From positions 687,588-751,587 of the forward strand of contig CAVOVE010000015.1 of assembly GCA_963699775.1 (NCBI GenBank): a stretch of 64,000 bases of DNA, given 5' to 3'. The stretch comes from an uncultured Candidatus Rokubacteria bacterium (GTDB lineage: Bacteria > JAUVQV01 > DATDCY01). Shown here one piece after another: positions 30,893 through 64,000 of the stretch. Made by a program: the position numbers and the translations under genes. The notes beneath the pieces are model-generated. The model did no database searches. It was not told the origin of the DNA and saw only the letters and a program-made list of their open reading frames with translations. Within the stretch, counting starts at the first letter, position 1. Each line of letters opens with the position of its first letter.

Positions 30893-30968
<76 letters not shown>

Positions 30969-39069: not shown

Positions 39070-39150
39070 CGACGGCAGCTGCCGCCGCGGCCGTCAGGTC
39101 GACGAGCGCTACGCGCACGCGCGGCGCCGCCGCTCCCGCCGCAGCGGGTT

Positions 39151-39447: not shown

Positions 39448-39562
39448 TCCTCGCTAATCGAGCGACGCTCGGAATGCCGGTAAAGACCTGCTGGGTTTCG
39501 AACTCCTCGCGTTTGAAGGTTTCAATCGCCGGGACCGGCAGGGGCTGCTTCGGGTCGCGCAT
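39448..39562 (-). CDS. candidate precursor peptide ORF (MRDPKQPLPVPAIETFKREEFETQQVFTGIPSVAR...), 3' end undefined because it runs into pqqD in +1 frame
   Basis: ATG at approx. 39562 preceded by GAGGAGAG Shine-Dalgarno at -7; alternative upstream ATG at 39613 (MLDRKAKESATLTRRAK-); positioned immediately 5' of the PqqD gene, as is usual for RiPP precursors. Confidence 0.3.
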
Positions 39563-39638
39563 CTTCGCTCTCCTCGTCAAGGTTGCGGACTCTTTCGCCT
39601 TGCGATCTAACATAAATGATCCTCGCCGGGCAAGTCAA

Positions 39639-40985
39639 CTAGTCCGGGAACGGGGCGTTGTCGACCGCGGGACGGGGAAATTTCGTCTCCCGGCCGGTGC
39701 CGAGCACTTTCCAGAGCGGATAGTGCTCATAGCGGCCGAGGAGGGCCTCGATGTCGAGGTCACGCTCCGCAAAGCTGTAGAACACGATGCAAAGCGGGGA
39801 CCGCCACCCGCCACCGCGTACACCCTCGAGGAGCTCGCCGACCGTGGCGCCATCGTCCGGGGCGACCCGCCCGGCTTCGATGGCCGACGCGAGCAACTCC
39901 ACAAACCGCCCTGGAGCCCGTCCGCGCAGAAACCGCTGCGCCGGTGCCCGGACCCAGATACGCTCGCACAGCGGCGCGACGGCGCGCGAGATCTCCCGGT
40001 AGTACTCGTCGCGCCGTCCGCCGCAGGCGGTGAGGATTCCTACGGTGGCGTCGCACCCGAGCGAGTGTGCCAGGCGCTCGAAGAGCGGTATCTCCAGACG
40101 GTAGCTCGCGGGGTTCTTGCACTCGCTCAGCAGCACGTGGATACCGGCGCCGCGCAGCAGGGTGTTGCGGCAGACGTTGTCCCGCGGTTCCAGACCGAAC
40201 TCGCGCAGGGCGGCGAGGGCGGCGCTTGTGTCGAGCCGGACCCGCCTCCCCAGCGCCTCGTGCGCGGCCAAGGCAGCCATCGCGTTCGCGGTGTTGTGCG
40301 CCTGGAAGCCCCCGAGCGTGATCGGGATCTCGCCGACAGCGATCACGGGCCGCGCGCCTTCGGGGCCTTTCTTCCAGATCGTCCCCCCTTCGAGGTACCA
40401 GCAGCGGGGGTGCTCGCCCTGACGGCCTTCAACGGTGAAGAAGACCGTCTCCACGCCGCGCGGGCGCGGCATCGCGCGCACGAGCGGGTCGTCGGCGTTC
40501 AGGACTACCGTCCCGCCGCGGCGCACCCGGCGGGGGATGGCCGCCTTGACGCGGGCCATAGCCTCCACAGTTTCGATCCCGCGGTCGCCAAGGTGGTCGG
40601 GAAGGACGCTCGTCACCACGCCGACGTCGATGCGGCTGAAGCCCGGTCCGTACTCGAGCAGGCCCCCGCGAGCCGTCTCCAGCACAAGCGCCTGTACCCC
40701 TGGACACTGCGCTGCCCGCCAGGCGCCTCCCGGCCCGGCCTCGTCCCGGCGGTTGACATAGTGCCCGGCGTGGGCCACCCCATCGGTGGTGCAGGCCCCG
40801 ACGCGGAGCCCGGAGGCTCCCAACATCCGGGCGAGGAGCTTCACAACGGTGGACTTGCCATTGGTTCCCGTGACGGCGGCGATGGGGACCCGCAGCGCAG
40901 CGAGGCGCGGCCGCACGAGGAGGCGGACCGCCGTACGATAGGCGGCAATCCTCAGGTGGTAGTGCCGGTCGACGAATCCCTTGAG
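39639..40985 (-). CDS. Mur-ligase-family protein (CphA C-terminal / CapB / MurD-like amide ligase)
   Basis: VPIAAVTGTNGKSTVVKLLARML (Mur ligase P-loop), VLETARGGLLEYG, DVGVVTSVLPDHL middle-domain motifs; approx. 449 aa; GTG start overlapping upstream rSAM gene. Confidence 0.7.
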   Translation of the reverse strand, partial: LKGFVDRHYHLRIAAYRTAVRLLVRPRLAALRVPIAAVTGTNGKSTVVKLLARMLGASGLRVGACTTDGVAHAGHYVNRRDEAGPGGAWRAAQCPGVQALVLETARGGLLEYGPGFSRIDVGVVTSVLPDHLGDRGIETVEAMARVKAAIPRRVRRGGTVVLNADDPLVRAMPRPRGVETVFFTVEGRQGEHPRCWYLEGGTIWKKGPEGARPVIAVGEIPITLGGFQAHNTANAMAALAAHEALGRRVRLDTSAALAALREFGLEPRDNVCRNTLLRGAGIHVLLSECKNPASYRLEIPLFERLAHSLGCDATVGILTACGGRRDEYYREISRAVAPLCERIWVRAPAQRFLRGRAPGRFVELLASAIEAGRVAPDDGATVGELLEGVRGGGWRSPLCIVFYSFAERDLDIEALLGRYEHYPLWKVLGTGRETKFPRPAVDNAPFPD

Positions 40986-42000
40986 ACCCACCGCTGACCT
41001 CCCCTCTGGCCGGCGAACAGTGCGCGAGACGGCTCGAAGCACGAACAGCCCCGACAGAACCTCGGGACACACCTGCCGCGGGACCAGAGCGCCCGTCGTA
41101 TCTCCCGCGCTTTCGCGCCGCCCCAGGCGAGCGCGAAACCCTTGTTGTCCGCAGCCCCGAGCACCATGCGGCCTCCCCAGTCCTGGCAGCAGAGGAGCAC
41201 TCTTCCGTCGCGAAGAACCGCTGCGCACTGGAATGGCGCACTGCACGCCGGCAGCGCGCGACCGAAGGCGAGCCTCAGCCTCCGTCGCCACGGCCGACGC
41301 AACTCCGCTGCTGCGAACTCGCTGTAGCGAACGAGCTCTCCGGCCCGGTTTCTCAAGGGCAGGACCAGCGCCTCGACGCCGCGCTCCGTCCAGTGGCGGA
41401 GGAACTCGGACGCTTCCCCGGCATTGGCACGCTGGCGAACGAACCGGACGCGGACTTCGAGCCCGCGCTTCCGCGCCGCCGCGACCCCGGCGACGGCCCG
41501 ATCGAAATCGAGCCCCGGACGCACCACCCGATAGGTCTCCGGCCTGAGCGCATCGAGGCTGACCTCGATGAAATCGAGTCCGCCTGCGGCCAGCTCCCCC
41601 GCGCGAGCCTCGTCGAGCAGCGAACCGATGGTGACGACGCCGATCCGGCAGCGGGGTCCGAGGGCGACCCGGGCCTCGCGCACGCGCAGTCCGAGCTCCG
41701 GGTCGAGGAGCGGTTCGTTCTGGAGCATGAGCACGAGGATCCGCACGCTGCCGGCGTCGGCGAGTTCACCGATGATGCTGCGGTACAGCCCGGCCGCCAT
41801 CGTCCCGCCGTCGCGGCCGCAACCGTGAGCAACCGGGCAGGTCGGGCATCGGCCGTTGCACCCGCCCACGGTCTGAATCTGGACGACGCGAGGGCCGGGG
41901 AAAGCAGCCTCAGCGCCAGCGAGCAAGGCGAGCCCGCGGCGTGCGAGATCGGCACCCAGGAGGGCGTCTGCCGCGATCGCGCGGGCGCGCCGGGTCAGGC
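40952..42000 (-). CDS. radical SAM protein with SPASM/twitch-type C-terminal Cys cluster
   Basis: CNGRCPTCP (CxxxCxxC), GEPLL-like NEPLLDPEL, C-terminal CSAPFQC...LCCQDW...CRGC; start codon uncertain. Confidence 0.75.
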
Positions 42001-42090
42001 GCCCCACCCGGATCCGCCAGGCACGATCGCCTTCCCGCTGCGCTCCACGCTCAGCGCCGATTTCGCTCCCGGTTCCATCCTGGCGGCTGT

Positions 42091-43017
42091 TCACGGGACA
42101 ATCCTGAACGGGGCGTTGCCCCGGATGTTGCCCTCGCTGGCTGCCGCCACCGGGCCGGCGGGGTCGAGCGCGCATTCATACGGGTGAGCGAAAGATGTTG
42201 TCGGCAGACCGCTTTCACCCGCGCTGCTCAACCCCAGGTCCCGGTACTGCGCGAGGAGCGAGGTGATCGGCATGCCAGGGTCCTGGGAGAAGAAGGACAG
42301 ATGTGACACGACGAGGGGATTGAAGATCCGGTTCACCCGCCCGAGCCGCTGCGGGATGGTGACGCTGAGCGCCTCCTCGTCGTCACCGCGCACGCCGTTG
42401 AAGTGCTCCAGGTCCCGCCCGAGGTAGCTGACGAAGTTGATGCTCAACCGGTCGGGTGCGATCGTTGTCCCCGGCCGAGCGAACGCGGCGGGTGCCGCGA
42501 GAAAGTGCCGGTGCAGGCGGGTTGCGAGCACTGCGCTCTCCCAGAGGATGCCGCAGAACCCCCTCGGCGGATACGGGAGGACCATCAGCGAGCTGGGCAC
42601 CGTCCCCTGCAACTGTTGATTGAACGCGCAGACCCCGTTGTTCACGACGTTTGCCGAGAGGAGGAAGGTGTCGGTGTCGGTACGACGATGCGCGATGAAC
42701 ACCGGGAGCCGCTCGAGATCGACGAACACGATGTCGTCGTCGGCCTTGATGAACAGGGTGTCCCCGTACGACGATTCCCGGTAATGCTCGTAGTAGTCGT
42801 CGTAGCACGGCCCGGTCGGTCGGTACAGGCGAATGCCCGGGTGCAGTCGGGGCAGTGTCGAGATCCAGTTCCGGTCCGACTCGTTTCGAGCGTAGTCCCA
42901 GATGTGATACTCGGAGACGACCCTCCGCTGCAGCGCCGTCGCCGCGTAGCCGACAAGGATCGACATTCGGTCGCGGCGGCCGGCAAACGTGGTCATGATG
43001 ACACGCGATGGCCCCAT
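42091..43017 (-). CDS. hypothetical protein with DXD-type motif (FIKADDDIVFVDL), possible GT-A-fold glycosyltransferase
   Basis: 308 aa ORF; composition protein-like; weak resemblance to capsule-synthesis GT families. Confidence 0.4.
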   Translation of the reverse strand: MGPSRVIMTTFAGRRDRMSILVGYAATALQRRVVSEYHIWDYARNESDRNWISTLPRLHPGIRLYRPTGPCYDDYYEHYRESSYGDTLFIKADDDIVFVDLERLPVFIAHRRTDTDTFLLSANVVNNGVCAFNQQLQGTVPSSLMVLPYPPRGFCGILWESAVLATRLHRHFLAAPAAFARPGTTIAPDRLSINFVSYLGRDLEHFNGVRGDDEEALSVTIPQRLGRVNRIFNPLVVSHLSFFSQDPGMPITSLLAQYRDLGLSSAGESGLPTTSFAHPYECALDPAGPVAAASEGNIRGNAPFRIVP

Positions 43018-43069
43018 GGCAGCCGGCAGCGTACCAAAGCGGCACGGCGCGGTAAAGCGCCGCGACGGC

Positions 43070-43103
43070 GTTTGCAGGGCGCAGCCCTTCGTTTATATAA
43101 CAG
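43070..43103 (+). promoter_or_regulatory. candidate promoter/RBS for GT75-like gene (TTCGTTTATATAACAGGTG)
   Basis: AT-rich TATATA-containing patch in otherwise 70% GC DNA, AGG 8 nt upstream of GTG start; divergent intergenic region. Confidence 0.3.
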
Positions 43104-44083
43104 GTGTGATTACTGCGGTCGTCGTGCCATCCTGCCGCGAGGAGCAGTCGAGGGAGTTCGTGCAGGCTTGGGATGGGGCCTTCTCGCGCGATGGCGTCCG
43201 GCTCTACATCGTCGAGGACGCTGCGGAGCGCACATTCCGCCTCGACGGCGCCGCGACCGCCCGGTTCACCCACCTCTGCTGGAGCGACGCGCCGCCGGGG
43301 ATGTTGGACTGCATCGACGTCCGTTCCCCGGGTTGCCGACAGATCGGGTTCTGGCAGGCCTATCGCGACGGCTGCGATGTGCTGATCACCCTCGACGACG
43401 ACGTTCGGCCCGCACCGGGATCGGACCTGATCGGCGAGTTCTCGCAGGTGCTCCTCGAGGGGATTCCCCTCTGGATCGACCCCTTGCTCAACTACCGCTC
43501 GCGGGGATTCCCCACCGGAAATCCGGGACGGATCCGTACGGATTTCCACGTGGGGTGCTTTCTTGGCGTCCCGGACGTCGACGCGGAGACCCAACTCAGG
43601 CACGCGCGGGATTTCCCGGGCGACCCGCCCCGCTATCTCCCCCGCCCATTCGTGGTACCGCCCGGTTTCCTCATCCCGGTCAACGGCGGGATCGCCGGTT
43701 GGCGACGGGAACTGACCCCCTATGTCCATTACACGCTCTGGGACCCGAGCCAGGGGTACCGGCGCTTCGACGACATCTGGATGGGGGTGATTCTCAAGCA
43801 CCTGCTCGACCTGGCGGGGCTACGGCTGAGTTGCGGCCCCCCGTCCGTCCAGCACAATCGCGCCTCGGACGCCCGCAAGAACCTCGAATACGAGCGGGCG
43901 GGCAAGCAGTGGAACGAGCGGTTCTGGGCGTTGCTGCGTACGGCGGTCGACGCTGCTCGGGGCTCCGGATCGTTCACGGTGCAGGAGGCCCACGAACTCG
44001 TGGCGCGCTGCCTGCTGGCGATGGACAACTCCTGGGCGCACCGTGAAGGCGAGGCCCTCCTGCGCTGGCGCTCTTTTTTCTGA
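43104..44083 (+). CDS. RGP-like (reversibly glycosylated polypeptide / UDP-arabinopyranose mutase, GT75-family-like) glycosyltransferase
   Basis: VITAVVVPSCREEQ..LYIVEDA..LITLDDDV and especially RRFDDIWMGVILKHLLDLAGLRLSCGPPSVQHNRASDARKNLEYE resembling the RGP motif [45 protein letters not shown]. Confidence 0.55.
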
Positions 44084-44097
44084 TCCTGGAGCCCGCG

Positions 44098-44856
44098 ATG
44101 AGAAAAAGCGCGATCTTCACCATGGTCCGCGACGAGCAGGTCTTCCTGCCGATCTGGCTGCGCTACTACTCGCGGTTCTTCGCCCCCGGGGACATCTACG
44201 TCTTCAACCACCGCTCGACTGACGGCAGCGTCGAGGCCGCGCAGCGGGAGTGGCGGTTCCGCCGGATCGACGTCGACCACCCGGTCTACAACGATTTCCC
44301 GTGGTACACGGCATTCATTCAGGAGCGGCAGCGCAAGCTCCTCGCGCGGTATCACGTCGTCCTCTTCGCAGAACCCGACGAAATCCTCTGGCACGCCGAC
44401 GGCCTCGGGCGCTACATCCGGCGGTTCCGCGGCGACGCCGTCCGGGCGAACGGCCACCAGATCTGCCACGACCGGGTGGAGGAGCCGCCGCTGGAGCTCT
44501 CGCGAACAATCCTGTCGCAGCGCAAATATTTCGTCCCCGACCCGACGTACTGCAAGCAGCTCCTGACCCGGGTGCCTCTGACGTACATCTTCGGCTTTCA
44601 CGAGGCGACCGAGTGCCGGGAGATCGACCCCGACCTGTACCTCTTCCACCTGCACTCCATGGACTACGAAATGGCGCTGCAGAAGCACGAGCGGACCCGG
44701 CGCTACCGCGACTACTCCCGGACAAGCGTCGAGCAACACCTGGGATTCCAGAGCCTGCTCGTGGGCGAGGATTTCAACCGCTGGTTCGACGGCCAGTCGA
44801 CACCGTTGACACGGCACCTCATACCGGATCGGGTCCGGAGCAGCGACAGCTTCTGA
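44098..44856 (+). CDS. putative glycosyltransferase (nucleotide-diphospho-sugar transferase fold, GT2/GT92-like)
   Basis: 252 aa; MVRDEQVFLPIWLRYYS, AEPDEILW segments typical of GT-A DUF-type transferases. Confidence 0.45.
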   Translation: MRKSAIFTMVRDEQVFLPIWLRYYSRFFAPGDIYVFNHRSTDGSVEAAQREWRFRRIDVDHPVYNDFPWYTAFIQERQRKLLARYHVVLFAEPDEILWHADGLGRYIRRFRGDAVRANGHQICHDRVEEPPLELSRTILSQRKYFVPDPTYCKQLLTRVPLTYIFGFHEATECREIDPDLYLFHLHSMDYEMALQKHERTRRYRDYSRTSVEQHLGFQSLLVGEDFNRWFDGQSTPLTRHLIPDRVRSSDSF

Positions 44857-45149
44857 GATCTGCGTCGGGGCCCGCGGCAGGGGTCAAGCAGCGCCGAGAG
44901 GCCGAACGGCTGCGCCGCTGCTGGGAATGAATGCCGCCACCCTCTGGAGGAAACTGAAATCATTTCGAGACCCCCCATGATTGCATCGTGCATGATTCGC
45001 GGGCATTGAGTTGGCGAGTGCTCCGATTCACATCCCGTGAAGATCGACGCTCATTCACCCACGGGTGTTTCGCTGTCGGAGCAAAGTGCGAATTGCCTCC
45101 CCTGTGTGCCATCACCCCAAAAGTCCAGTCGCCAGCGTCCTGGCGCATG

Positions 45150-45192
45150 GATTGCGGCTATATTGAGCAAACCTACAACGGAGGAGAAGGCA
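45150..45192 (+). promoter_or_regulatory. candidate sigma70-like promoter and RBS upstream of osmC (TTGCGG-N17-TATATT; GGAGGAGAAGG)
   Basis: read directly from sequence 45140-45192. Confidence 0.3.
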
Positions 45193-45723
45193 ATGACCGT
45201 GGTGAACGGGCTGGAAGTAGACAACCTGGTGAAGGTGGTCGAAGCGGTGAAGCAGAAATGGGAGATGGGGAAAACGGTCTGGAAGGCCACCACCACCTGG
45301 AAGGGCGGCTTCCAGGTCGAGACGTGCTCGCGCGACTTCACGCTGCTCGCGGATGAACCGGAGATGCTCTGCGGCACCAACACGGCGGCCAACCCCGTCG
45401 AGATGGTGCTTCAGGCCTACGGCGCTTGTCTCTCGATCGGCTACGCGATGAACGCCGCGGTCCGCGGGATCAAGATCCAGGACCTCACGATCGATCTCGA
45501 AGGCGAGATCGACCTCCCCGGCTTTCTTGGATTGGAGGCTCCCGAGGATCTGAAGATGGACAAGCTCCCCGGCTTCAAGACCATCGACGTCAAGGTGAAG
45601 ATCAAGGCCGACGCCACGCCAGAGGCGATCCGACAACTCCACGCGCACGTGGTGGGCACCTCCCCGGTCGGGATCACGCTCTCGCGCCCGGTCAAGATCG
45701 GAACGGCTGTGGAGGTTCTGTGA
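45193..45723 (+). CDS. OsmC/Ohr-family peroxiredoxin-like protein
   Basis: PVEMVLQAYGACLSIGYAMNAA, conserved Cys pair spacing. Confidence 0.8.
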   Translation: MTVVNGLEVDNLVKVVEAVKQKWEMGKTVWKATTTWKGGFQVETCSRDFTLLADEPEMLCGTNTAANPVEMVLQAYGACLSIGYAMNAAVRGIKIQDLTIDLEGEIDLPGFLGLEAPEDLKMDKLPGFKTIDVKVKIKADATPEAIRQLHAHVVGTSPVGITLSRPVKIGTAVEVL

Positions 45724-46139
45724 TCCAGGTGCTCGGTCAGACGGCGACGGATGAGCGCCGGCCCTGCGCCGAGCAACCGCTGTACGCGATCGTCTGCGCC
45801 ACCGGATCCGAGAACGAGGAGCGGGACCGATCGGCGCTGATGTTCGCAGCATTGGCGGCTTCGGCGGATTACCGGACGATCCTGTATTGCATCCAGGGCG
45901 CCGTCGAGGTGATGGTGAAGGGCGCCATCGCGGCGCGCGAGACGCCGCGGCCGGGTCTGCCGTCGATCGCCCAGCGGCTGCAGGAGGCCCGGGAGATGGG
46001 CGTGGAGATTCAGTGCTGCACCCAGACCATGGCCAACAAAGAAATCCCGCCGGCGGATCTGGTGGAGGGCGTGACGCCGGCTGGGGCAATGAGCCTGATT
46101 GCGCTGACGACCCGCGCGAAGGGGACGATCAGCTTCTAA
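45720..46139 (+). CDS. DsrE/DsrF-like family protein
   Basis: YAIVCATGSENEE...ADYRTILYCIQGAVEV; GTG start overlapping osmC stop. Confidence 0.7.
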   Translation: MIQVLGQTATDERRPCAEQPLYAIVCATGSENEERDRSALMFAALAASADYRTILYCIQGAVEVMVKGAIAARETPRPGLPSIAQRLQEAREMGVEIQCCTQTMANKEIPPADLVEGVTPAGAMSLIALTTRAKGTISF

Positions 46140-46292
46140 GTGGGGGAACCGTCGGGGGAGCGTCGAGCCCCCGACGGCTCATTTCGCCGGCACGGTTTCG
46201 TAAACGCTGCGGCAATCCGTTCACCGAAGATGTGGCTCACGCCCTCGCGGAGCTGAAGAAGCGCCTTTCATCCCGGGAACGAAGATCAGTCG

Positions 46293-46667
46293 CTATTGTT
46301 TGAGGTACAGGGAGTCGATGTAGGTCACCAGATCGGTGAGTTTCGCGTCGTCCCACGCCAGCGCATTGCCTTTCATGGCGCCCATGAGGCAACCCTGGAC
46401 AGTCTGGTCAAGAGTTCGCATCTTCTTCGCCATGGCGAAGACCTTGGGGAACGGCGCCCGGCCGGTGAACGGAATGTCGCCCTGACCCAGGTTGGTGTGG
46501 CATGAATTGCAGCTCTTGCCGTTGGTGCCCAGGCTCGCATCGGCAAAGAGTTTCTGCCCTCTGGCGGCGGCATCTTCGAATTCGCCGGCGGCGGTGGGGT
46601 GCGGGAAAAGCAGTGGGATCATCAGGAGTGCCGACAGGAAAAGAGTCGTGCGCGCCGATGTGCTCAT
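46293..46667 (-). CDS. secreted mono-heme c-type cytochrome
   Basis: signal peptide MSTSARTTLFLSALLMIPLLF..., heme motif CNSCH, distal Met. Confidence 0.7.
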   Translation of the reverse strand: MSTSARTTLFLSALLMIPLLFPHPTAAGEFEDAAARGQKLFADASLGTNGKSCNSCHTNLGQGDIPFTGRAPFPKVFAMAKKMRTLDQTVQGCLMGAMKGNALAWDDAKLTDLVTYIDSLYLKQ

Positions 46668-46864
46668 GTTCGTCCCCTCCTTCGTGGTTGCGGCCTGCCA
46701 GACGCGTGGCGAATCGTTGATCTCGCTCCCCGCATGATTCCTTGGTGTCAAAGATACGCCTCATGAACGGAATATGCACCTTGAGACCAGCCTCCCCGTT
46801 CGTGCCGACCCGCGCGCTGCAAACTCTCGCACTCCCGCGCCAGGCTTCCAGCCGCCCCCTGCCG

Positions 46865-48451
46865 CTAGGGCGCCATCCGCGTCAGCACGATGTCCGGATT
46901 GCGCTCGGAGAAGTAGCGGCATTCCCACTCGCCGGCGAAGAGGATCACCAGGTTGCCGTGCACGTCGTGCGCGAGCTGGCAGCCGCCCATCAGCGGCTTT
47001 TCGGCGACGACGGCCGCGCTCTCGGCGGCGACCCAGCGGACGGTCTTCCAGGACATCAGTTCCAGCCGGGAATCCGCCCCGTACTCGGCAAGAAGCCGGT
47101 GCTGCAGCACTTCGAACTGCAGCGGACCCACCGCGCCGAGCAGCGGCAGGCGCTGGGCGGCGTCCTTCAGCGCGAAGGTCTGCACCACCCCTTCCTGAAG
47201 CAGGTGCTCCAGCCCGGCCCGGAAACGCTTCGACTTCGCCGCGTTGGGACAGTGCAGAAAGGCGAAGTGCTCCGGCATGAAGCGCGGGATGCTCTGGTGG
47301 ACGACCGACGGGTCTTCGGTCAGGGTGTCGCCGATCAGGAACTCGGCGTGGCCGACGAGCCCGACGACGTCCCCGGCGTAGGCCTCGTTGACGATCTCGC
47401 GCTCCTGCCCGAAGAGCTTGTGCGAGCTCGAGAGCCGGACGCTGGTCGCCGGTGCGCGGGTGGAAGACCTTCATGTCGCGCTCGAAGCGGCCGGAGCAGA
47501 CGCGCATGAAGGCGATCTGGTCCCGGTGCCGCGGGTCCATGTTCGACTGGATCTTGAAGACGAACCCCGAAAAGCGCGGGTCGTCCGGGGCGATCTCGCC
47601 CTCCAGCAGCTTGCGCGGCCCGGGCGGCGGGGCGTAGTCGAGGAAACCGTCGAGCAGCAGCTGCACGCCGAAGTTGTTGACCGCGCTGCCGAAGAAGACG
47701 GCGGTCATGTCGCCGCTGCAGGACGGCCGCGTGGTCGAAGGTCTCGCCCGCCCCGTCGAGCACGGAGACCTCCTCGAGCACCTTCCGGTACGAGCGCCGC
47801 GTCGAGCCGCTCGGCGACCGCGTCGTCGGCCAGATCGAGCACGGAGACCGGCGTCCGGTAGGCGCCCCCGGGCACCCGCTCGAAGAACGAGACCAGCTTG
47901 CGGCGGCGATCGAACACGCCCCGGAAGTCCGGGCCGGTCCCGAGGGGCCAGTTCACGGGGTAGACGTGCAGCTGCAGCGTGCGCTCGATCTCGTCGAGCA
48001 GGGCCAGCGGCTCGTGCGACGGCCGGTCGAGCTTGTTGATGAACGTGAAGATCGGGATCTGCCGGTTGCGGCAGATTTCAAAGAGCTTGAGCGTCTGGCT
48101 CTCGATGCCCTTGGCGGCGTCGAGCACCATGACGACGGCGTCGACGGCCATCAGCACGCGGTAGGTGTCCTCCGAGAAATCCTTGTGGCCGGGGGTGTCC
48201 AGCAGGTTGATGCAGAAGTCCCGGTATTCGAACTGGAGCACGGTCGAGCTGACCGAGATGCCGCGCTTGCGCTCGAGCTCCATCCAGTCGGAGGTCGTGT
48301 TTCTCTGGTTTTTCCGGGCCGTCACCGACCCGGCCAGGTGCACGGCGCCGCCGTACAGCAGCAGCTTTTCCGTCAGGGTGGTCTTGCCGGCGTCGGGGTG
48401 CGAGATGATCGCGAACGTCCGCCGCCGGGAAACCTCTTTCATCAAATCCAC
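46865..48451 (-). CDS. prfC: peptide chain release factor 3; two frame changes
   Basis: [39 protein letters not shown] GTPase motifs (ORF 47705..48451); middle and C-terminal domains in ORFs 46761..47708 and 46865..47278. Confidence 0.85.
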
Positions 48452-48541
48452 GCGTCACCTTCCGTTCATCATCGAATATCTGTGCGAATGTTCGCCAACC
48501 AGCTGCGCAGGCGAGTGCGGGAATTTACCTCATCCGGGGAT

Positions 48542-49553
48542 TCATAACAACCGGCCGGCAAGGGTCACCCCGGGACCGCGCGGGCCGTAGAGGCGACGTG
48601 CCAACTCGGCGAGCCAGCGGCCCCGCGCGTCGTCGCGAAGCTCGAGCCGCCCCGCCCGCGCACCGGCGAGCAGCAGCGAAATCTCCTCGCCCGGGGTTCC
48701 GAGACGCCGCAGCGTCTCAAAGAGCGCGGCGTGCTCGGGGCTCGCGCCCGTGCTCTCGGTCCACTCCCGGGCGGCCGCGGCAAACTCCGGGTCAGGCGGA
48801 AGGGGGACCTCCTCGGACGCCGCGGGGCCGAGGCCGTTGATCGCGTCGATCACCCGCTCCTTGCGCTCCTTGTACGGGCAGTGCCGCAAGTTCCGCCGGC
48901 AGGATCGCCGCGCCGATGGTGATCCGCTGGCCGCCCATGCCGACCGGGTACTCGAGTTTGGCCGTCAGCGGCTCGACCGGCAGCCCGCCCGCGAAGCGGA
49001 CCGGGACCACGGGCGCGCCCGTGGCGATGGCCATGTCGAGAAAGGCCCCGCTCATCTTCTGCACCGGGGCGCGGCAGGTGAGCGCCCGCGTCCCCTCCAC
49101 GTGGATCATCACGGACTTGCCGCCGCCGGCGATCTCGCGCGCCAGCACGCCGATGATCCGCGGCAGCTCCTCGCGGTTGCTGCGGTCGAAGTAGGTGATC
49201 ACCCCCGGGTCGTGCGCCCCCGGCCAGGCGAAGGCGTGGCGGATCAGGTTCCCGAGCCAGGTCGTGCGGTGCTCGATCTTGGCCAGGGTCACGGTGAGGA
49301 TCCCCGAGAGCGCCGAGGCGATCAGCGAGAAGAGGATCGACTCGATGCCGACCTGATGGTTCGCGAGGTAGAGGACGCCCTTCCCGCGCAGCGCGGCGAA
49401 GCCCGCGGGGTCCTCGAGGCGCACGCGCCGCACGAAGCGCCCGGCCAGACCGTAGTAGATGTCCTCGACGGGCCAGCGCCCGATCCGGTAGTAGTCGTCC
49501 CACCAGTCGCGAACCGGCGAGAGATCGAGAGTCGGCGGCCCGGCATCGCTCAC
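48542..49553 (-). CDS. 1-acyl-sn-glycerol-3-phosphate acyltransferase-like (AGPAT/PlsC family); probable C-terminal domain or partner of Pfa3
   Basis: LYLANHQVGIESIL (HxxxxD/E block), VMIHVEGTRA, FLDMAIATGAPVVPVRFAG; C-terminal 100 aa in another frame (ORF 48542..48889). Confidence 0.75.
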
Positions 49554-49559
49554 CGAGAC

Positions 49560-50433
49560 CGCCGCCGCGCGTGCGCTCGACGGTGAGCGGCCAAACCGTG
49601 AGCGGCTCGGACGGGCAGCGTGCGAGCACCAGGCTGGGGCAACCGCCAGGGGAATCCGGGCTCACGGCGGCCGAGCCCGTGTCCGCCACGACGCTCGACG
49701 GGTGCACCGCGGCTCGTGCCGCAACGTGCTCCTTCACGGCGATCTGGCCGAGCAGGTCGCCCTCGGCCGCGTAGGCCTGAGCGAGCGTGCCGGGGAGCCA
49801 GTCGCTGGCGCGGACGTCGGCGTCCGCGAGGTGCGTCGTCCCGCTCCTGTCGCTGGAGAGTCGCAGCCCGGGCACAAAGCGACGGTCGCGCAGGAAGGCG
49901 CGCCGATCGCGCGGCGGCGCGGACCCGAGCGCTCCCTTGGGGAACAGCACCTCCACCAGGTCGAGGCTCGCGATCACCCGGCCGCTGGCGATCGCCTGGA
50001 TCTGAAATCGCGGGAACCGGGGGTCGCCGTCGAAACCGGCGAAGCGCGTCTCGCAGCGCACCTCGCCTGCAGCCGGGAGCGGCGCGAACAGCCGCAGCGA
50101 CACGATGCGGTGCGGGTAGGCGACCTGGTCGGCGGGGATCTCCGGGCTCCAGTCGCAGAGTCGGTCGTGGGGAATGCCGTGGGTCAGCGCGTCGAGCAGC
50201 GCCTCGTGGAGCAGACCGCGCGGCTCGCCGCCCCCGGCGGCGTCGAGGAGCGAGGAGGAGGCGCCGGGGACGAGCTTGAGGGAGCGCAGCAGTTGGAAGG
50301 ACGGTCCGTGAAAGAGGGTCCCGGACTCGTAGGGATCCGGCGACGGGGTGGCGTTGGACGGCGGATCCCAAGGAACATCGAGCGCGCATTGTTCCCGTTC
50401 GGGCTGCGGGGTCCTGTCGCTGCGGACCTCCAT
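49560..50433 (-). CDS. PKS-type dehydratase C-terminal half (LFHGPSFQ motif) initiated from the repeat-borne ATG; probably continuous with the AGPAT domain
   Basis: MEVRSDRTPQP-EREQCALDVPWDPPSNATPSPDPYESGTLFHGPSFQLLRSLKLVPGASSSLLDAAGG...; no HxxxGxxxxP half downstream of the repeat. Confidence 0.5.
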
Positions 50434-50516
50434 GGGCTTCGCTTCGCTCACCCCCTGGAGACCTCCCCTCCGCGCCACCCCTTCGCCCAGCGCGTCCTCT
50501 GGGCAGTGACGGGGAA
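50391..50516 (-). repeat. MITE-like repeat, copy B (126 bp; TIRs GTTCCCGTTCGGG / TGACGGGGAA; contains ATG-GAGGTCCGCAGCGACAGGACCCCGCAGCC)
   Basis: same family as copy A; lies between the triple-DH gene and the DH'-AGPAT gene. Confidence 0.75.
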
Positions 50517-50529
50517 GTCCTCGTGGCTG

Positions 50530-53332
50530 CCAATCATGGAGGTTTCGTGTTCGGGGGCGAGACGCACCCGGCCCGTGGCAACGGGTTCGAAGCGGGAGAG
50601 GGATTCACTCGCGGCGTCGCGCCAGGCGAGCAGGGTCACGTCGAAGACGCCCTCCCCCGCCGGAGCAACCTCCGTCGTGAGGCGCAGCGGACCGGTGACC
50701 GGGACCCAGCGCAGCGCGCGGGCGTCTTCCACGGCCACGACCCGCATCCCGGGCGCCCGACGTACGGCAGCCCGCGCCAGGCGGTCGACCATCGACATCA
50801 GCGGCAGGGCCGGCACCGTCCAGGTCGGGCGATGGTCCTGGAGCCAGGTGTCGACGTCGGGATCGAGCATCTCTTCGCCGTCCGCAGCGCCCCCGCCGCC
50901 CTTCCCCCTTCGCCAGAGGGGGATCGCGCACGACCCGCATCGCCAAGCCCCGGGCCTCGTAGATTTTCGTGCCGTCCACCCAGAGCGAGGCGTCCGCGAC
51001 CGCGAGCGGGCCGCGGTCGTCCTCCCCGGTGCGCACCAGGTCCAGGAGCGTTGTCACCCGGCGGTTGCGCGGCAGCACCTGTCCCCGATACTTCCAGGAG
51101 TGCTGTTCGCCGAGGGCCAGCGGTTCGAACCGCGCCGCGCCGCCCCTGCTCTCGGCCATCCCCTGGTGGATCATCGCGAACTGCAGCAGTTGGAGCATCG
51201 CCTCCAGGCCGAGCGAGCCGGGCTGCACCGGGTCCTGGAAGAAGTGCGCCTTGAAGAACCAGGCCGCGGGGTCGACGTCGGTCTCGGCGCGATACCGTCC
51301 GAGCCCGGCCGGACCGCCGGCAGGCCAGATGCCGGTCACGCGGTCGAGCATCAGCAGCGGCGCGGTTTCCATCCGGGGGCCATCCCCTGCCCCGCCCTCC
51401 GCCAGGTCTGCAGATCGACCGACTCCGAGCGCACCTCGTCGAGCGCTTCGCGTTCCCCCGCAGCGGCCGGGAGGCCGACCTGTCGGGCCAGGGCTTCCGC
51501 GGGAAAGTAGCCGAAGACGGTCTTGAGGTCGTACACCGTCCGCTCGCCGACGCTGCAGACGACGTCGAAGCTTTCGATGAGCATCCCCGCCGACCGCGAG
51601 ATCCGCGTCAGCACCGCGCGGGTGCGCAGCCTGCCGTCGCCGGGGAAGACCTCGGCGAGCAGGCGGCCGTCGCCGTCGAGGTTGCGGAAACTCAGGTCGC
51701 GCTCGGACGTCAGCGGACTGCCGGCCCAGGTCGCCAGCCAGCCGCAGGGCTGCAGCGCGGCCTCGAGCAGGACGGCAAAGGGCATCGTGCGCGCGCCGTT
51801 CGCGGCGAAATACCAGGCGTCGGCGGGGATGTCGTACTCGACCTCGACCGCGCTGCCCTCGCGCATCGCCCCCATCTCGCCCTCGAGGCGCGTGACGCGC
51901 GACATGAACTGGTAGGGCGGGCCGGGGAGGCGCGCCAGCCGGCGCACGCCGTCGAAGGCGCGGTAGGCGGGGCCGAACGCCTGCCGACGGCCGCCCCCAG
52001 GCGCAGGCCAGCAGCGAGCGCCCGTCGAAGCGCAGGTCGCCCTCGGACGCGGCGGGTTCCCCGTCGACGATGCCGTCCAGCAGTTCGGGCTTCGAGTCCA
52101 GCGGCCACCCGGGGACGAGGCGCAGGCCCATGCGGCGGCAGTGGAAGGCCTTGAGCCCGTCGACCGTGCACAGGATGTCGGCGTAGAGCGTCGGCTCCGG
52201 TCCGGCGATCAGCTCCTCGACGAAGATTTCGTACACGAGTTCGCGCGAGGCCGGGGTGACCTGGCCGCGGCAGCGCATCAGGTAGGGCTCATCCGGCACC
52301 GGCTCGAAGCGCCAGCCGTCCCGCTCCAGCGTGAAGCCCAACGCGGCCAGGTAGACCGCCATCGCCTGCAGGCCGCCCTCGAACATCAGGGTCCCGGGCA
52401 TGCAGGGGTCGTTCGTGAAGTGTCCCTCGAAGAACCAGTCGCCCGGGTCGATGCGATCCACGGCGCGCAGATAGCCTCGTCCCCAGGGCCCGCCCCCGAC
52501 GGCGATCTCCGTCACCTCTTCGAGCAGCAGCAGCCGGCCGCCGGGCAGATTCGGCGTGCGGGTGTGAGTCGCAGCCCCCTCGAAGCCGGGACCGAAACAC
52601 GCGTCGGCGCGCCCGGCCGCGAAGGCCTCGAGCTGCGCGCGGGAGAGCCGCGACCGGCCCGGCGGACACCGGCGGCGGATCGACCCGCGCCCCGTCCCGC
52701 GGCTCGAGCGGTCGCCGGGTCCCAGAGCACGCCCGCCGACCCGGCGAGTTCCTCGTCGGTGAAGAAGCCGGCCTGCCCGCCCCGCACGGTGAGGCGGGGG
52801 ATACCCGGCGACGGTGCAGGTGGAGTGGAAGAAGAAGAGACGGACCGCCCCCTGCTGCGCGTGGCCGTCGACGCCGATCTCGTAGCGCAGGGTTTCGCCG
52901 GCGACGGGGAGCCCGCCGTGGTAGGTCAGCTCGCAGCCGAGCAGCCGGTAGACGCGCTCCCCGCGGTTGAGGGCGTCGACGCCGAGCCAGGAGACGAGCA
53001 GCAGGTCGGCCTGCCCGGCCTCGATCATGATCCCCGCGGGCATGCGGTTGTCGTGCAGGTACCAGGCGCCCGCCGCGACGTCGGTCTCCGTCCAGACGGT
53101 GCCGGTGCCCAGCGAGAGGGGTTCGGCCTCCAGGCGCACGACGCGATCGGCGAGCAGCAGCGGCGGTTCGGGCATGCGGACGCGCCGGGTGCAGGCCGTC
53201 CTGGTCGGCGAATGCGGGACCGAAGATTTGGGAGAGTCGTCCGCTGGCGTGGATTTCGAGGGCGCGCCTGTCGAACACAATACCGTCCGTTGACCGTGCA
53301 GGCTGCGGGGTCCTGTCGCTGCGGACCTCCAT
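50530..53332 (-). CDS. Pfa3-like segment: three FabA-like hot-dog dehydratase folds; starts with the repeat-encoded MEVRSDRTPQP
   Basis: FDRRALEIHASGRLSQIFGPAF; MPAGIMIEAGQADLLLVSWLGVDALNRGERVYRLLG; DPGDWFFEGHFTNDPCMPGTLMFEGGLQAMA; DVDPAAWFFKAHFFQDPVQPGSLGLEAMLQLL; frame change near 53200. Confidence 0.75.
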
Positions 53333-53410
53333 CGTGCTCGCTTCGCTCCGCCGCGGAGACCTCCCCTCCGCGCCACCCCTCGCCGGAAGCGTCTCCAGAA
53401 GGAGCGTGTT
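53288..53410 (-). repeat. MITE-like repeat, copy C (degenerate ends; possible 7-bp CGTGCAG flanking duplication)
   Basis: same core as copies A/B; supplies ATG and first 10 codons of the triple-DH gene. Confidence 0.65.
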
Positions 53411-53419
53411 CTCGTGCAG

Positions 53420-54944
53420 TCAGCAGCGTCGCCGCCGCACGTTCGCGCAATTCCAGGAATTGGCGGTGCGCGGCAGCCTGATCATCGAGGAACGCGCGGT
53501 GCACGCGCGTCGCCATGGCGACCTGGGCCGCGATCTGCGCCAGGGCCTCCTGGGCGTGGCTGCCGGCGCGCACGGCGGACGGCGCCGCAGGGCGGGGCGC
53601 GGCCGGCAGCCCCGGGGACATCTTCCTCGCACACGCGCCAGCCGAGGAGCAGGCGGCCATCGTCGCTGTCGACGAGGAGTCGCTCCGCGCCCGGCGATGG
53701 CAAGCGCCATCTGCCGCAGCGACCGGCGCCAGTGCCGGAGCCGGCGGCTGCGTGATCGGCGCCACAGGCAGCGGCGGAAGCACGGGAGGGGGGCGGTGCG
53801 CCTGGTATTCCGCCGCCGGCTCCGCGCTGGACGCCGCTGCCGGGAACGCGACGGCGCACCTGTCCGCGGCGCGCACGCTGACGCGGACGCGCTGCCCGCC
53901 GAGGGCCCGGATATCGAGATCGGCGCGACGCTCGCCCGTCCACTCCGCGCCGCCGGGGTGGCGCCCGGCGGCGCAGGCGACCACCGCCGCCAGCACGCGC
54001 ACCAGCCCGAACGCGGCGTGGGCGCGTCCGAAGCGAGCGGCGACCTGGGACATCCCCGAAATGCTTCGGCCGCATCGCAGCTCGACCGCTCAGCGTCGCC
54101 GGCATCGCTCACCTCATCGATCAGCGCGAGGACGCGGTCGCCGTCGCGACGCGCGTCCGACAGGCGCTTGAGAACCATGACGACGGCGCGCGTCGCCGGA
54201 CGGGCCGGGCAGGCCGAGCTCGAGCGCCGCGGCCTCGTGCACCGGGTCGCAGGAGAAATCGGCCGCCCCCGCCAGCGCCAGATCGAGTTCCCCGGCGCGC
54301 AGGGCGCGCAACGCCGCCTGCAGCGCTCTGACCCCCGAGAGTTCCTCGGCCGACATCGTGAAGCCCGGCCCCGCCAGGTCGAACTGGACATTCAGGCGGT
54401 TTGCCGGGAGATTGGGCATGGTTCCGAGAACCCCGGCGCCGGTAAGCGCCGGAGACAGGATTTCGGCGGCGCGGCGAATCCAGAATTCGTCCGTGACGCC
54501 CCAGGCCGCGGCGATGTCCGGCAGGCGCCAGCGAGCCCCGTAGCGGGCCACGGCGGGATCGCACCCGACGCCGATCATCACGCCGGAGCGCTCGGACGGC
54601 GGCAGGGAAACGCCGGCCAGCGCTTCACGCGCCGCCGCCATGGTCCAGATCTGCTGCGGCAGAGCGGCGGCCAGATCGCTCGGCGGGAAGCGCGTGCCGA
54701 CCACCGGGAGCGAAATGGTCGTGGCGCAATGTGTCGTCGGGTCGGCAACGGCAAAGAGCGCGGTCGCGAAATCCGCCACCGACCGCCCTGCGCCGACCGC
54801 GGCGCCGATCCCGACCACAGCCACCGCGTGCTCTGAGGATATATTTGAAATCAGTCCCGCCGCCACCGGAACACCGGGAGCTGGCACGGTGCGAAGGGGT
54901 GGCGCGGAGGGGAGGTCTCCGTCGACGGAACGAAGTGAGCACAA
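53420..54944 (-). CDS. Pfa3-like chain-length-factor (CLF, KS-like without active-site Cys) segment; N-terminal approx. 15 codons (SLRSVDGDLPSAPPL) encoded by repeat copy D
   Basis: HAVAVVGIGAAVG, MPNLPANRLNVQFDLAGPGF, GELDLALAGAADFSCDPVHEAAALELG (ORF 54114..54944); continuation in ORF 53420..54391. Confidence 0.7.
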
Positions 54945-55094
54945 TGAGGAAGAGCCAGCCTCGCTTCCCGGCGCGCGATCCGATCGCTGGTCGAACGAGA
55001 CCGTGGGCCCTCAAAGCAGGGAATTCCCAGTTGACAAGAGAGCGAATGGTCGAGTTGGGTGGATGGTCCGGAGCGACAGGACCCCGGAGCCCGC
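54893..55094 (+). repeat. MITE-like repeat, copy D (inverted relative to copies A-C, approx. 200 bp with approx. 115-bp internal insertion)
   Basis: arms GAAGGGGTGGCGCGGAGGGGAGGTCTCC and GGTCCGGAGCGACAGGACCCCGGAGCCCGCAC match the family; sits in the KS-CLF linker. Confidence 0.65.
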
Positions 55095-55099
55095 ACATT

Positions 55100-56400
55100 A
55101 TCCCCCGGTTCCTCTACGATCAGATGTGCGTTGGCGCCGCCGAACCCGAAAGCGCTCACGGCCGCCCGACGCACGTCGCGGCTCTCCCAGGGCTCCGCTT
55201 CGCGCAGCAGGCGCAGGGGCGTGCCCGCCGGCAGCGGCAGCGGGTCGTCGGCGTGAAGCGTCGGCGGCCTCACGCCGGCGGCCATGGCGCCGATGACCTT
55301 GAGCAGGCCGGCAATCCCCGCGGCGGTCACGGCGTGACCGAAGTTGGATTTGAGCGAACCGATGGGGAGGTCCGCGGCTCCCGCGAAAACGCGCGCCGAG
55401 CTGCGCACCTCGACGGCGTCCCCGACCGCCGTCCCGGTTGCGTGGCACTCGAGCAGCGAGATGTCGGCCGGGAGCAGCCCCGCCATCGCGTAGGCCGCCC
55501 GCATCGCGCGCTCCTGCCCCTCCTCGCTCGGCGCCAGCAGACCGCGGCCCCGCCCGTCGTTGGAGAGCCCGATGCCCCGGATCACCCCGAAAATCCGGTC
55601 GCCTGCGGCCTGGGCGTCCTCGAGGCGCTTGAGGGCGACGGCGCCCGCCCCTTCGGCCGGCAGCAGGCCGTCGGCCTCGCGGTGAAACGGCCGGCTGCGC
55701 CCGCTGCGGCTGAGCGCCTGCAGCGCGGTGAAGCCGACGTGGATGAACAGGTCGTCCGCGGCGTTGACCGCGCCCGCGAGCGCCACGTCGGCCCGGCGGT
55801 CGTGCAGCAAGATCGCACGCGAGCTTGATCGCGTAGAGCGAGGAGGCGCAGGCGGCGTCCAGCGCGAACGCGGGTCCCAGGCCGAGCGCCCGCGCGACGA
55901 GGTGGGCCGGCAGACCCGGACATGAAACGGTTGCTCGCATCGACCGGGCCGATCCCGGCGGCCGCGTCGGCGAGCCGGTGACCGAACCAGGCCCGTTCGG
56001 CGAATCGGGCAAACGCCGCCGACGGAAAGGAGAGATTGCCGAAGACCGCCGCCACGCGCGGCCCGCCCTCGACCCCGGCCTCGCGCAGCGCTTCCCGCGA
56101 CACGTGCAGCAGCCAGCGCGCCAGCGGATCGAACTGCTGCACCTGCTCCGCCGGCACCGCGAATCCCGAGGGGTCGAACACCGCATCGAAGCCCTCGACA
56201 TACCCGCCGCGATCGGTCCAGGCGGCGTCCGTGCCGGAGGAGCCGCCGGCGCAGACCAGCTCGCGCCGCAGCCGCCACCGACCCGGCGGGGCGCGGGATA
56301 CGAGGTCGGCACCCGTCGCGCACGCGCTCCCAGAGCGCGGCGGGATGCAACGCGCCGGGCAGCACGCAGGCCCGACCGACGATCGCGATCGGGGGAAAGT

Positions 56401-56410
<10 letters not shown>
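55100..56410 (-). CDS. Pfa3-like beta-ketoacyl synthase (KS) segment
   Basis: PIAIVGRACVLPGA; active-site ALDAACASSLYAIKLACDLA (ORF 55098..56312 frame); HATGTAVGDAVE, SNFGHAVTAAG (ORF 54851..57091 frame); approx. 10-nt overlap with pfa2 stop. Confidence 0.75.
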
Positions 56411-62622
<6,212 letters not shown>

Positions 62623-64000
62623 TCAGGCCAGGGGCCGCGGCGCGACGTCGAATGCGCCGAGGGGAACGGGGACGCCGCAGGTGCGCAGCTGCTGGGCGCG
62701 CGTCACCGCGATGGCGCCCTCGAGCAGGTTGCGCCCGATCTGGGCCACGGTGCGCCGCGTCGGGTCCTCGAGGAAGGAGCCGCGCACCCAGTCGTTGAAC
62801 GCGCCCATCGCCGGCCCGCACCAGATCTGGTAGTCGGCCCGGCGCGCCGGGTCGTCGGCGATGGCCCAGCGGCTGGACTGGCCGAGGTACCAGCGGAAAC
62901 AGAGCGCCATGCGGTGTTTCGGGTCGCGGCCCGCGCGCTCGTTCTGACGCGGGTCGCGCGCCGCCCAGAAGCGCTCGGTCTGCTCGAGGACCGCCTCGAG
63001 CGGCAGCAGAAAGATCTCCTTCTCGAGACGCTCGCGCTCGCCCGCGGGAATCTCCTCGAGGGAGGCGTGGGACTTGTAGAGGTCGCGCAGGCGCCGGGCG
63101 CGGGCCGCGAAGAGCGTGCCCCGCCGCAGGACCTGCACCTGGGCCCCGAGTTCGAACATGTCGGCGGCCGGCGCCATCGCGACATCGGCCACCCCCGCCT
63201 GCGCGAGCAGCGCCCGCCCCGAGGCCCCGAGGCCGGACTCCACGGCGGCCTGATTCACCGATCCCGTGAGCACGTAGGCCGCGCCCGAGCGCGAACGCCG
63301 CGGCGACCGCGGAGGGGGTGCCGAGCCCGCCGGCGGCGCCGAGGCGCACCTGGCGGCCGTGGCCGTGCTGGGCGGCGAGGTCGGCGGCCACGCGGGCGAT
63401 GCTCGGGAAGATCGCCGACAGGGGCCGGTTGTCCGTGTGCCCGCCGGAATCGGCTTCGACCGTTATGTCCTCGGCCAGCGGCACGCGCCGGGCGAGGTCG
63501 GCCTCCTCCCGCGTGAGTCTCCCGGCCGCGACCAGCGCGTCGAGCATCTCCTGCGGGGCCGGGGCGAGGAAGAACCGCGCCGTCTCGGGACGCGAGATCT
63601 TGGCGAAGAGGTGGTGCCGCCGCCGCACGCCGTCCGCCGGCGTCGGCGGTGAGTCCCGAAGCGGCGTACCGCACCACCGGGAGCGTGAGCCTCATGAACG
63701 CCGAGGCCGAGACCCGCCGCACGCCTCGCCGCAGGTAGACCTCGACGGTGGCATCCTCGAGCGCCGACTCCTGCGGGGAGTGGATGAGGTTCGACCCCCA
63801 CGAGATATCGGGGCCCAGCTCGCGGGAGAGCTGCGCGACCGCGTCCTCGATGCGCGCGGGATCGAGCCCGGCCGCGCCGAAGAACCCGAGAAAGCCGGCG
63901 CGCGCCGCCTCGACGACCATGCGGGTCGTCGTGAGGCCGTTGGCCATCTCCCCGACCACGTACGGGAAGCGCACGCCGTGCGTCTCGCAGAAGGACCGAT
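62623..64000 (-). CDS. Pfa1/PfaD-like enoyl reductase (nitronate-monooxygenase-type trans-ER); N-terminus beyond window end
   Basis: FPYVVGEMANGLTTTRMVVEAARAGFLGFFGAAGL, ITVEADSGGHTDNRPLSAIFPSIARV; frame changes between ORFs 63255..63974, 62612..63628, 62623..63273. Confidence 0.8.

Follow-up and report, generated by a model that had tools for sequence, protein, structure and literature searches.

The closest described counterparts of the repeat dealt with here are the Rickettsia palindromic elements (RPEs), in-frame insertions which are translated and tolerated (Ogata et al. 2000, as cited in the MITE review PMC10969869); nearly half of the RPEs are intragenic. The present analysis was performed on 64,000 nucleotides (hereafter the window) from an uncultured Candidatus Rokubacteria bacterium, in which four copies (A-D) of a hairpin-forming repeat were found, three of them between the domains of pfa3, the gene for a polyunsaturated fatty acid (PUFA) synthase subunit. 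An earlier note on this DNA had taken these three copies to cut pfa3 at its domain boundaries into separately restarted open reading frames (ORFs). From the sequence comparisons given below it is highly probable that the copies are in-frame translated palindromic repeats of the RPE kind, seen through an assembly that is ridden with indels.

Like the RPEs, the family consists of short palindromic repeats (~100-150 bp) that are interspersed and, at the loci sampled here, have no linked transposase; they occur in frame in unrelated coding genes with a conserved peptide, at tolerant loops or linkers, and decay in situ. It differs from them in its origin, which is high-GC soil metagenome-assembled genomes (MAGs) labelled Rokuibacteriota, Nitrospirota or unclassified, in being mostly intergenic (~74 of the 77 sampled copies), in using both orientations and at least three frames, and in having a long form with a conserved internal module. 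Given the different phylum and the 72% GC, homology to the RPE families is unlikely, and the two are likened by class, not by sequence.

The miniature transposable elements with inverted repeats known as MITEs, such as Correia/NEMIS and the Anabaena MITEs, are likewise small, non-autonomous and present in many copies, with imperfectly complementary arms and occasional in-frame fusions. The arms of the present family, however, form an imperfect hairpin instead of clean terminal inverted repeats. Direct repeats flanking 63 copies were no longer than those of shuffled pairings, which also leaves the target-site duplication CGTGCAG that had been proposed at copy C without support. In ~0.7 Mb of sampled loci no parent insertion sequence with matching ends was found, no arm pair enclosed a coding insert, and no transposase was linked to the repeat; arm pairs 0.2-4 kb apart occurred in two cases only, each consisting of adjacent separate copies.

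The REP/BIME and REPIN sequences, associated with the IS200/IS605-like RAYT transposases, resemble the family in being structured, hairpin-forming, mostly intergenic and free of target-site duplication, and the stem covariation described below suggests recognition of a folded single strand, as may apply to REP/REPIN and RAYT. The element is much longer than a REP of 20-40 nt, and no RAYT gene was found in the sampled loci, a genome-wide RAYT search not having been made. MIRU (mycobacterial interspersed repetitive units) are reportedly operon-spacer repeats in which small ORFs overlap the flanking stop and start codons, and are the known case of the arrangement which the earlier note had proposed. 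Copy A, in an operon-type intergenic spacer, is MIRU-like in this respect. The other three copies (B-D), in contrast, are located within a single ORF, and a conserved stop or start is lacking in them. The present repeat is interspersed, non-autonomous and hairpin-forming, that is, mobile-element-like DNA of a previously undescribed family.

Reading of pfa3 in relatives and in the window

The product of pfa3 is a subunit of the Pfa3/PfaC type, in which KS, CLF, two FabA-type DH domains and a C-terminal AGPAT domain are joined in one polypeptide, encoded beside pfa1 (ER) and pfa2 in the orthologues. For the retrieval of full-length orthologues a stitched protein of 2536 aa had to be used as query, as a first query with a DH fragment of 221 aa gave short fragments only; the Sorangium Pfa3 and a synthetic Pfa3 were among the protein matches. 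Six close orthologues (P0121-P0126) with 70-79% identity were obtained. Each has one undivided ORF, of 2529-2612 aa, and they share their Pfam domains (ketoacyl-synt twice, FabA twice, Acyltransferase). All six are located on Illumina-type contigs with intact pfa1, pfa2 and pfa3, P0126 on a MAG rich in copies of the element. Because their translations are free of stops, these ORFs are unlikely to be artefacts of gene calling.

The element peptide is present in frame at the same three linkers of the orthologues (e.g. ...GVARRGGLQRQSEAEPLEVRSDRTPQPER...), as full copies, halves or remnants (Table 1), and the copies are recognisable by nhmmer at the DNA level inside these ORFs. The codon that corresponds to the supposed start codon ATG reads Leu, Ser, Val, Glu or Thr. 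At site C the 3' junction lies at a constant distance from the start of the DH domain in all orthologues, so one ancestral insertion is indicated; the protein fragment P0247 reads through the same site. The more distant homologue P0128 (56%) carries the element at none of the sites. The earlier note would have taken its reading as refuted by orthologues in which these segments are in-frame linker coding sequence without similarity to copy A. Half of this was observed: the segments are in-frame linker coding sequence in the orthologues, but they do resemble copy A and many other copies.

An ENA contig (L001), reached via the closest DH fragment, shows synteny with the window, to which it is 82-92% identical in nucleotides. 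It crosses copy C in frame and stop-free and also holds a remnant of copy B in frame, and its site D is an ordinary linker of ~85 nt. A further antisense copy was found in the MAT-ACP linker of pfa2 in relatives (L001 3465-3562, L095 2458-2556 and L024 7103-7311), and the one on L024 (CAWCKM010000053.1, Nitrospirota MFD00709.bin.1.4, a relative 93% identical) is of the long form and is read through in frame. Positions 1-6370 of L024, below the ACP/KR region, showed no similarity to the 3' half of the window's pfa2 or to pfa3 by blastn and tblastn, so this contig is not usable for an orthologous pfa3; the loss of similarity points to a rearrangement, to truncation of the cluster or to misassembly, at the repeat or close to it. 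In the window itself the pfa2 MAT-ACP linker has no copy, and only a faint resemblance, CTGAGGAGTCCTGTCGCC at ~59460-59480, was seen there, which could be a decayed remnant.

In the raw window pfa3 is broken at many places. When the intact orthologue P0121 was aligned by tblastn, its residues 1-2546 were recovered in order, in high-scoring segments alternating between frames -1, -2 and -3, with at least 14 frame changes that fall mostly inside the KS, CLF, DH and AGPAT domains. A plot of GC content at third codon positions (GC3) by frame showed that in pfa2 and pfa3 the coding frame changes at intervals of a few hundred bases, at the elements and elsewhere, and Viterbi stitching on GC3 needed ~19 switches for pfa3. 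Catalytic motifs are split as well: DAACASSLYAIKLAC is out of frame with the rest of KS, and DGLH/RRVRMPEPPLLL is broken at ~53190. The cuts in the gene are thus not confined to its domain boundaries.

At the three copies themselves few bases separate the raw sequence from a continuous frame. In copy D the window reads CCGG-GAAG where three other long-form copies have CCGGAGAAG, and is one base short at 54975-54976; this presumed 1-base deletion separates the KS from the CLF frame, and with one A inserted a stop-free ORF runs from FGFGGANAHLIVEE through the element to AVAVVGIGAAVGAG. Copy C has two 1-base deletions, one near 53379 (GGCG-AGGGG) and the other near 53353 (CTCC-GCGG). The latter takes a nucleotide out of the conserved hairpin stem, which is unbroken in the L093 and L001 copies of this site. 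Among five orthologous copies only the window has these gaps, and in the family alignment of 67 copies no other copy shown is gapped at both positions; with both bases restored, the reading ...SGEGVARRGGLQRRSEASTMEVRSDRTPQPARSTDGIVFDRRALEIH... contains no stop. Just upstream of copy B a presumed 1-base deletion in a CCC run (50501-50503) separates the DH frame from that of the element and AGPAT, and one added C gives the continuous ORF ...FPVTAPEDALGEGVARRGGL...DPYESGTLFHGPSFQLL. The restored reading ...EDALGEGVAR is common to P0122, which has ...ASEDELGEGVAR there; the exact position of this deletion is only approximately placed by such comparison because the linker itself is variable. Once one base is restored at D, two at C and one at B, all three junctions are fused, stop-free and match the orthologues. 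The upstream segments had been said to end in or just before each element. In the raw window this holds for B only, where the upstream frame stops inside the element, whereas the KS frame crosses all of D to a stop 33 nt beyond and the CLF frame passes C without a stop.

As a control, proteins from intact JGI contigs were compared with the window by tblastn. This comparison replaced GC3-stitch counts, which in control regions with several genes were confounded by gene boundaries. Frameshifts were detected in a range of genes within 23895-30742 and 46874-63998 (Table 1). Identity of the genes outside the pfa cluster was mostly 80-99% over the main segments, with a few short ones at 48-76%; prfC, for example, matched an intact orthologue of 527 aa at 92-99% identity in frames -1, -2, -3 and -1. 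Frame breaks are therefore a property of the whole sequence and not of pfa3. More than 100 isolated 1-nt gaps, spread through coding sequence, separate the window from L001, 13 of them in the GTPase gene prfC, which is 92% identical. Substitutions between the two, counted in stitched frames of pfa1-3, amount to 21.6% at third codon positions against 8.5% and 7.2% at first and second positions; this bias therefore indicates purifying selection on the genes, and frame breaks that are not shared.

Table 1. Repeat copies, genes and frame changes in the window, with copies at the corresponding sites of orthologues and in other genes
Feature	Position	Strand	Description	Basis
Copy A	17199-17288	-	Short form, divergent 5' arm, intergenic	nhmmer 65.5 bits
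Copy B	50388-50493	-	Short form, pfa3 sense, DH to DH'-AGPAT linker	nhmmer 77.9 bits
Copy C	53291-53385	-	Short form, pfa3 sense, CLF-DH linker	nhmmer 83.2 bits
Copy D	54884-55101	+	Long form ~206 nt, antisense to pfa3, KS-CLF linker	
pfa3	48536-56404	-	KS-CLF-DH-DH-AGPAT PUFA-synthase subunit, ~2540 codons, one gene, broken in the raw window; at least 14 frame changes	tblastn
pfa2	57100-62610	-	KS-MAT-ACPs-KR-DH, frameshifted in window; at least 8 frame changes	tblastn frames
pfa1			2 frame changes	tblastn
prfC	46874-48451	-	Release factor 3 GTPase; 3 frame changes	tblastn
clpX			2 frame changes	tblastn
NUDIX hydrolase			2 frame changes	tblastn
His-phosphatase			2 frame changes	tblastn
CHAD			2 frame changes	tblastn
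Flavin reductase			1 frame change	tblastn
CYTH			1 frame change	tblastn
tig			0, intact	tblastn
clpP			0, intact	tblastn
Site C, P0121 (L093)			Full, ...AGAGVARRGGLQRQSEAEPLEVRSDRTPQPERSTHGLSFDRHALEIH...	
Site C, P0124 (L095)			Full copy, diverged	
Site C, P0125			Full copy, internal insert	
Site C, P0122, P0123, P0126 (L092)			Halves or remnants	
Site B, P0126 (L092)	L092 15854-15950		Full in-frame copy, EGVARRGGLHRRTEGSTTEVRSDRTPQRARE	
Site B, P0125			Half copy, MEVRSDRTPQPARE	
Site B, P0122			Remnant	
Site B, P0121, P0123, P0124			None	
Site D, P0124 (L095)			Short-form copy, antisense frame, ASGSPRCGTPSSPRRSSDGGLPPAPPLRT	
Site D, P0126, P0122, P0123			Partial	
L040			DNA polymerase III alpha finger domain; same frame as pfa3	
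L082			PurL AIRS_C-GATase_5 linker; antisense frame as at site D	
L081			Between two UvrA-like units; third frame	

The repeat family and its hairpin

Much of what the earlier note had said about the repeat as such was borne out. Copies are present at the places it had named, two motif scans of the window giving 4 and 3 exact matches where 0.1 and 0.0 were expected by chance; B and C share their leader and the reading MEVRSDRTPQP at the nucleotide level in pfa3 mRNA sense; D is inverted; and the sequence is an interspersed, MITE-like DNA repeat rather than a conserved protein motif, found in three pfa3 linkers and as a family outside pfa3. In the downstream frame copy B translates as GEGVARRGGLQGVSEAKPMEVRSDRTPQPERE. 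Repeat search and motif scans placed the copies at slightly different limits from those of Table 1 (A 17206-17288, B 50395-50493, C 53294-53385; arms of the inverted copy D 54884-54938 and 55065-55096, against 54889-54946 and 55052-55101 by nhmmer).

The family comprises a short form of ~97-105 nt and a long form of ~206 nt with a conserved internal module of ~115 nt. Copy D had been described as an element with a 115-bp insertion, but the entire stretch 54891-55096, module included, aligns to copies on L026, L027 and L024 at 87, 83 and 78% identity, and D is therefore a conserved long form. In a subfamily (8 of 63 copies, e.g. L001 9380-9400; of the L093 type, with 95-96 nt between anchors) a 21-nt insertion was observed at the hairpin apex. 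This apex also takes up the 115-nt module of the long form, which makes the loop the place where the element varies.

A scan of GTDB representative genomes with a 21-mer of the core gave at least 90 loci, among them, in two Illumina MAGs, at least 47 in the SPAdes MAG CAZEOK01 ("uncultured bacterium binchicken_co232_174") and at least 25 in the megahit MAG JANOHV01 (Candidatus Rokuibacteriota). Full-length copies are also present in a Nitrospirota-labelled, Microflora-Danica-style MAG, a close relative of the window whose pfa1/pfa2 region is 93% identical to window positions 60169-64000. Single 21-mer matches in Micromonospora, Pseudonocardia and others had no flanking similarity and were set aside as looking like chance. 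Over the sampled sequence nhmmer returned 106 matches to the repeat, and an alignment of 67 copies gave the consensus GGCGGAGGGGTGGCGCGGAGGGGAGGTCTCCAnCGGCGGAnCGnAGn'GAGCACGn'TGGAGGTCCGCAGCGnCAGGACCCCGCAGCCnGCACGGGAAC in pfa3 sense, directly outside of which the information content falls to zero. No Rfam family matched, neither with the window at gathering thresholds nor with the copies at E <= 10, where three chance-level matches only were returned. Copies up to 96% identical were also observed in MAGs labelled Anaerolineaceae, Legionella, Chitinivibrionia, Nitrospirota and Rokuibacteriota (L023/L064, L055/L078, L082, L024/L076, L031, L067), several of them on short contigs; they point either to binning errors or to an element that crosses phyla.

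Three of the 77 sampled copies lie in long, GC3-supported ORFs of accurate assemblies outside pfa3, each in a different frame relation (L040, L082 and L081 in Table 1). All three sense frames of the consensus are open, as are two of the antisense ones; the remaining antisense frame is closed in a TGAC variant only. In the Chitinivibrionia-labelled MAG with the PurL copy (L082 5512-7281), the antisense copy in the linker is followed by an apparent part of a sense copy (…RAGVRSDRTPEPNGN…), which would be an inverted pair translated in one ORF. A census of the element peptide in a representative library at 50% identity gave 28 matches, most of them short ORFs, probably called in error where intergenic copies lie. 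P0244 and P0259, which matched in several stretches, turned out to be unrelated repeat proteins, and the informative matches were P0247 and P0257 only.

RNAalifold, applied to an alignment that included the flanks, gave almost no structure, whereas on the gap-free 99-nt core of 37 distinct copies the entire element folds as one imperfect hairpin. In this alignment the central hairpin is 94.2% paired, compared with 33-50% for slid controls. It consists of an 8-bp stem, CTCC[A/G]NCG...CGN'[T/C]GGAG, around a mini-hairpin N-C-GNA-G-N', and is followed by a GGTCC-N9-GGACC hairpin. The closing pair of the mini-hairpin (43-49) is CG in 21, GC in 11 and AU in 5 copies and is never unpaired. The covariation score was 0.181 against 0.076 in shuffles, none of 500 shuffles reaching the observed value. 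Pairs of G with T on the sense strand are compatible with folding of this strand as RNA or as single-stranded DNA. DNA mini-hairpins of the C-GNA-G or GCGAAGC type are very stable, and the central loop, e.g. GCGAAGC at window positions 53340-53346, is a covarying N-C-GNA-G-N' unit of this form. As to how the element may move, this form hints at recognition of DNA folded as a single strand.

Copy A and its surroundings

The ATG of an EmrB-like MFS transporter gene at 15678-17198 (Pfam MFS_1, E = 1e-59) lies 3 nt beyond the end of copy A. The family had been placed at emrAB, and this stands for the position of copy A directly upstream of the EmrB-like gene; the emrA label was not confirmed, the ORF at 17339-18616 upstream of copy A having no Pfam match. 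The end of the copy reads GCACGGGAAC-TGA-ATG directly ahead of the MFS start (17195-17201), and a stop codon in one minus-strand frame lies at its other edge (17288-17340), a tight operon-spacer position.

In the relatives L094 and L095 prfC is followed directly by tig-clpP-clpX. The window has ~16 kb between prfC (46.9 kb) and tig (30.7 kb), at 30743-46873, including three tRNA genes (30791-31080). Beside this tRNA cluster a 132-nt tandem duplication of 89% identity (31897-32160) and an 81-nt direct repeat of 94% identity (31148-31228 and 33539-33619, spaced 2.4 kb) were observed.

Explanations for the copies in pfa3

In the proposed course of events, an element abundant in a clade of high-GC soil bacteria would, prior to the divergence of the sampled relatives, have entered three linkers of pfa3 and a fourth one in pfa2. 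Nearly all of the element's six frames are open, and it would encode a peptide rich in Gly, Arg, Ser and Pro, so that in-frame copies would be tolerated and translated within one Pfa3 of ~2540 aa, to decay slowly thereafter by half-deletions and substitutions. From the continuity of the ORF the element peptide is predicted to be part of the Pfa3 protein, presumably as a neutral flexible linker. The gene in the window would appear chopped only by 1-base indels of the assembly, about one per 0.5-0.7 kb, four of them in or beside the three copies; these indels are probably sequencing errors rather than very recent mutations. Several observations weigh against this account. The genes tig and clpP and the MFS gene are unbroken, which makes the error density uneven, and the frameshifts, known from the assembly sequence only, may be real recent mutations. 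Copy C has 76-89% nucleotide identity between orthologues, compared with 43-65% in the adjacent linker, and pure neutral tolerance does not explain this conservation, for which gene conversion by paralogous copies, selection on hairpin or peptide, or re-insertion is possible. Because only three of the 77 sampled copies elsewhere are clearly intragenic, the four linker sites in one gene cluster are an unexplained enrichment.

The earlier note had left the choice between a native chain of restarted polypeptides, a mobile element domesticated as a stop/restart cassette, and insertional inactivation. None of these agrees with orthologues that are single in-frame ORFs, with the variable codon at the ATG position, or with indels that affect prfC and clpX as well. 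That the element ends each upstream segment and supplies an ATG and leader, making Pfa3 a chain of translationally coupled polypeptides, is hardly credible. Two downstream ORFs of the raw window do share their leader and the start MEVRSDRTPQP, a stop of the upstream frame does lie inside the element at B, and copy A, 3 nt before the MFS start codon, has a MIRU-like position. Six orthologues, however, read through in frame with the ATG replaced; at C and D the upstream frame has no stop in or before the element, and the breaks there are window-only 1-nt gaps at positions conserved in the family, the one at C disrupting the stem; and at least ten further breaks lie inside catalytic domains. A pfa cluster in decay, in which insertions and frameshifts are real inactivating lesions, is very improbable too. 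Breaks do seem denser in pfa2 and pfa3 than in some other genes, tig, clpP and the MFS gene being free of them, but frameshifts likewise affect prfC, clpX and at least six further unrelated genes, substitutions through pfa1-3 keep their third-position bias in corrected frames, the insertions are older than the divergence from relatives with an intact gene, and L001, another long-read-style contig, has different 1-nt gaps.

It is somewhat less improbable, though still unlikely, that the copies are read through and at the same time kept for their hairpin or peptide, as an mRNA pause or processing signal aiding co-translational folding or as a flexible linker. The conservation of copy C, which is like that of coding sequence, the compensatory changes in the hairpin and the four linker sites in one synthase fit this proposal. 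Half or whole copies were nevertheless lost while the ORF stayed intact (B is absent in P0121, P0123 and P0124, D in P0121, P0125 and L001), and the copies are therefore dispensable; that partial losses recurred speaks against a strong requirement. Covariation between paralogous copies can moreover reflect the needs of a mobility machinery instead of a host function, and gene conversion, with the many copies of the genome as donors, can be the source of the conservation. A wider version is doubtful to the same degree: the hairpin repeat would be kept, or restored by conversion, in megasynthase linkers since folded mRNA or DNA or a disordered peptide would be useful there, e.g. for a translational pause in which each domain of the PUFA synthase could fold, and the family would be a structure-specific mobile element across soil phyla. 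If true, the latter would be a previously undescribed element of this kind, found in several soil phyla.

With in-frame translation of the copies as the preferred reading, the idea of a mobile element re-engineering a megasynthase into restarted subunits is not upheld and should not be propagated. Any finding from this window that is based on ORFs carries the frameshift caveat, and ORF oddities in long-read MAG sequence in general should be interpreted only after housekeeping genes have been checked for frameshifts as a control. A repeat family not described before, and abundant in soil lineages of which little is known, now has a defined consensus and structure. The locus would thereby be a clear case outside Rickettsia of a palindromic repeat that lasts as a translated linker, at four sites of one PUFA synthase and through the divergence of several species.

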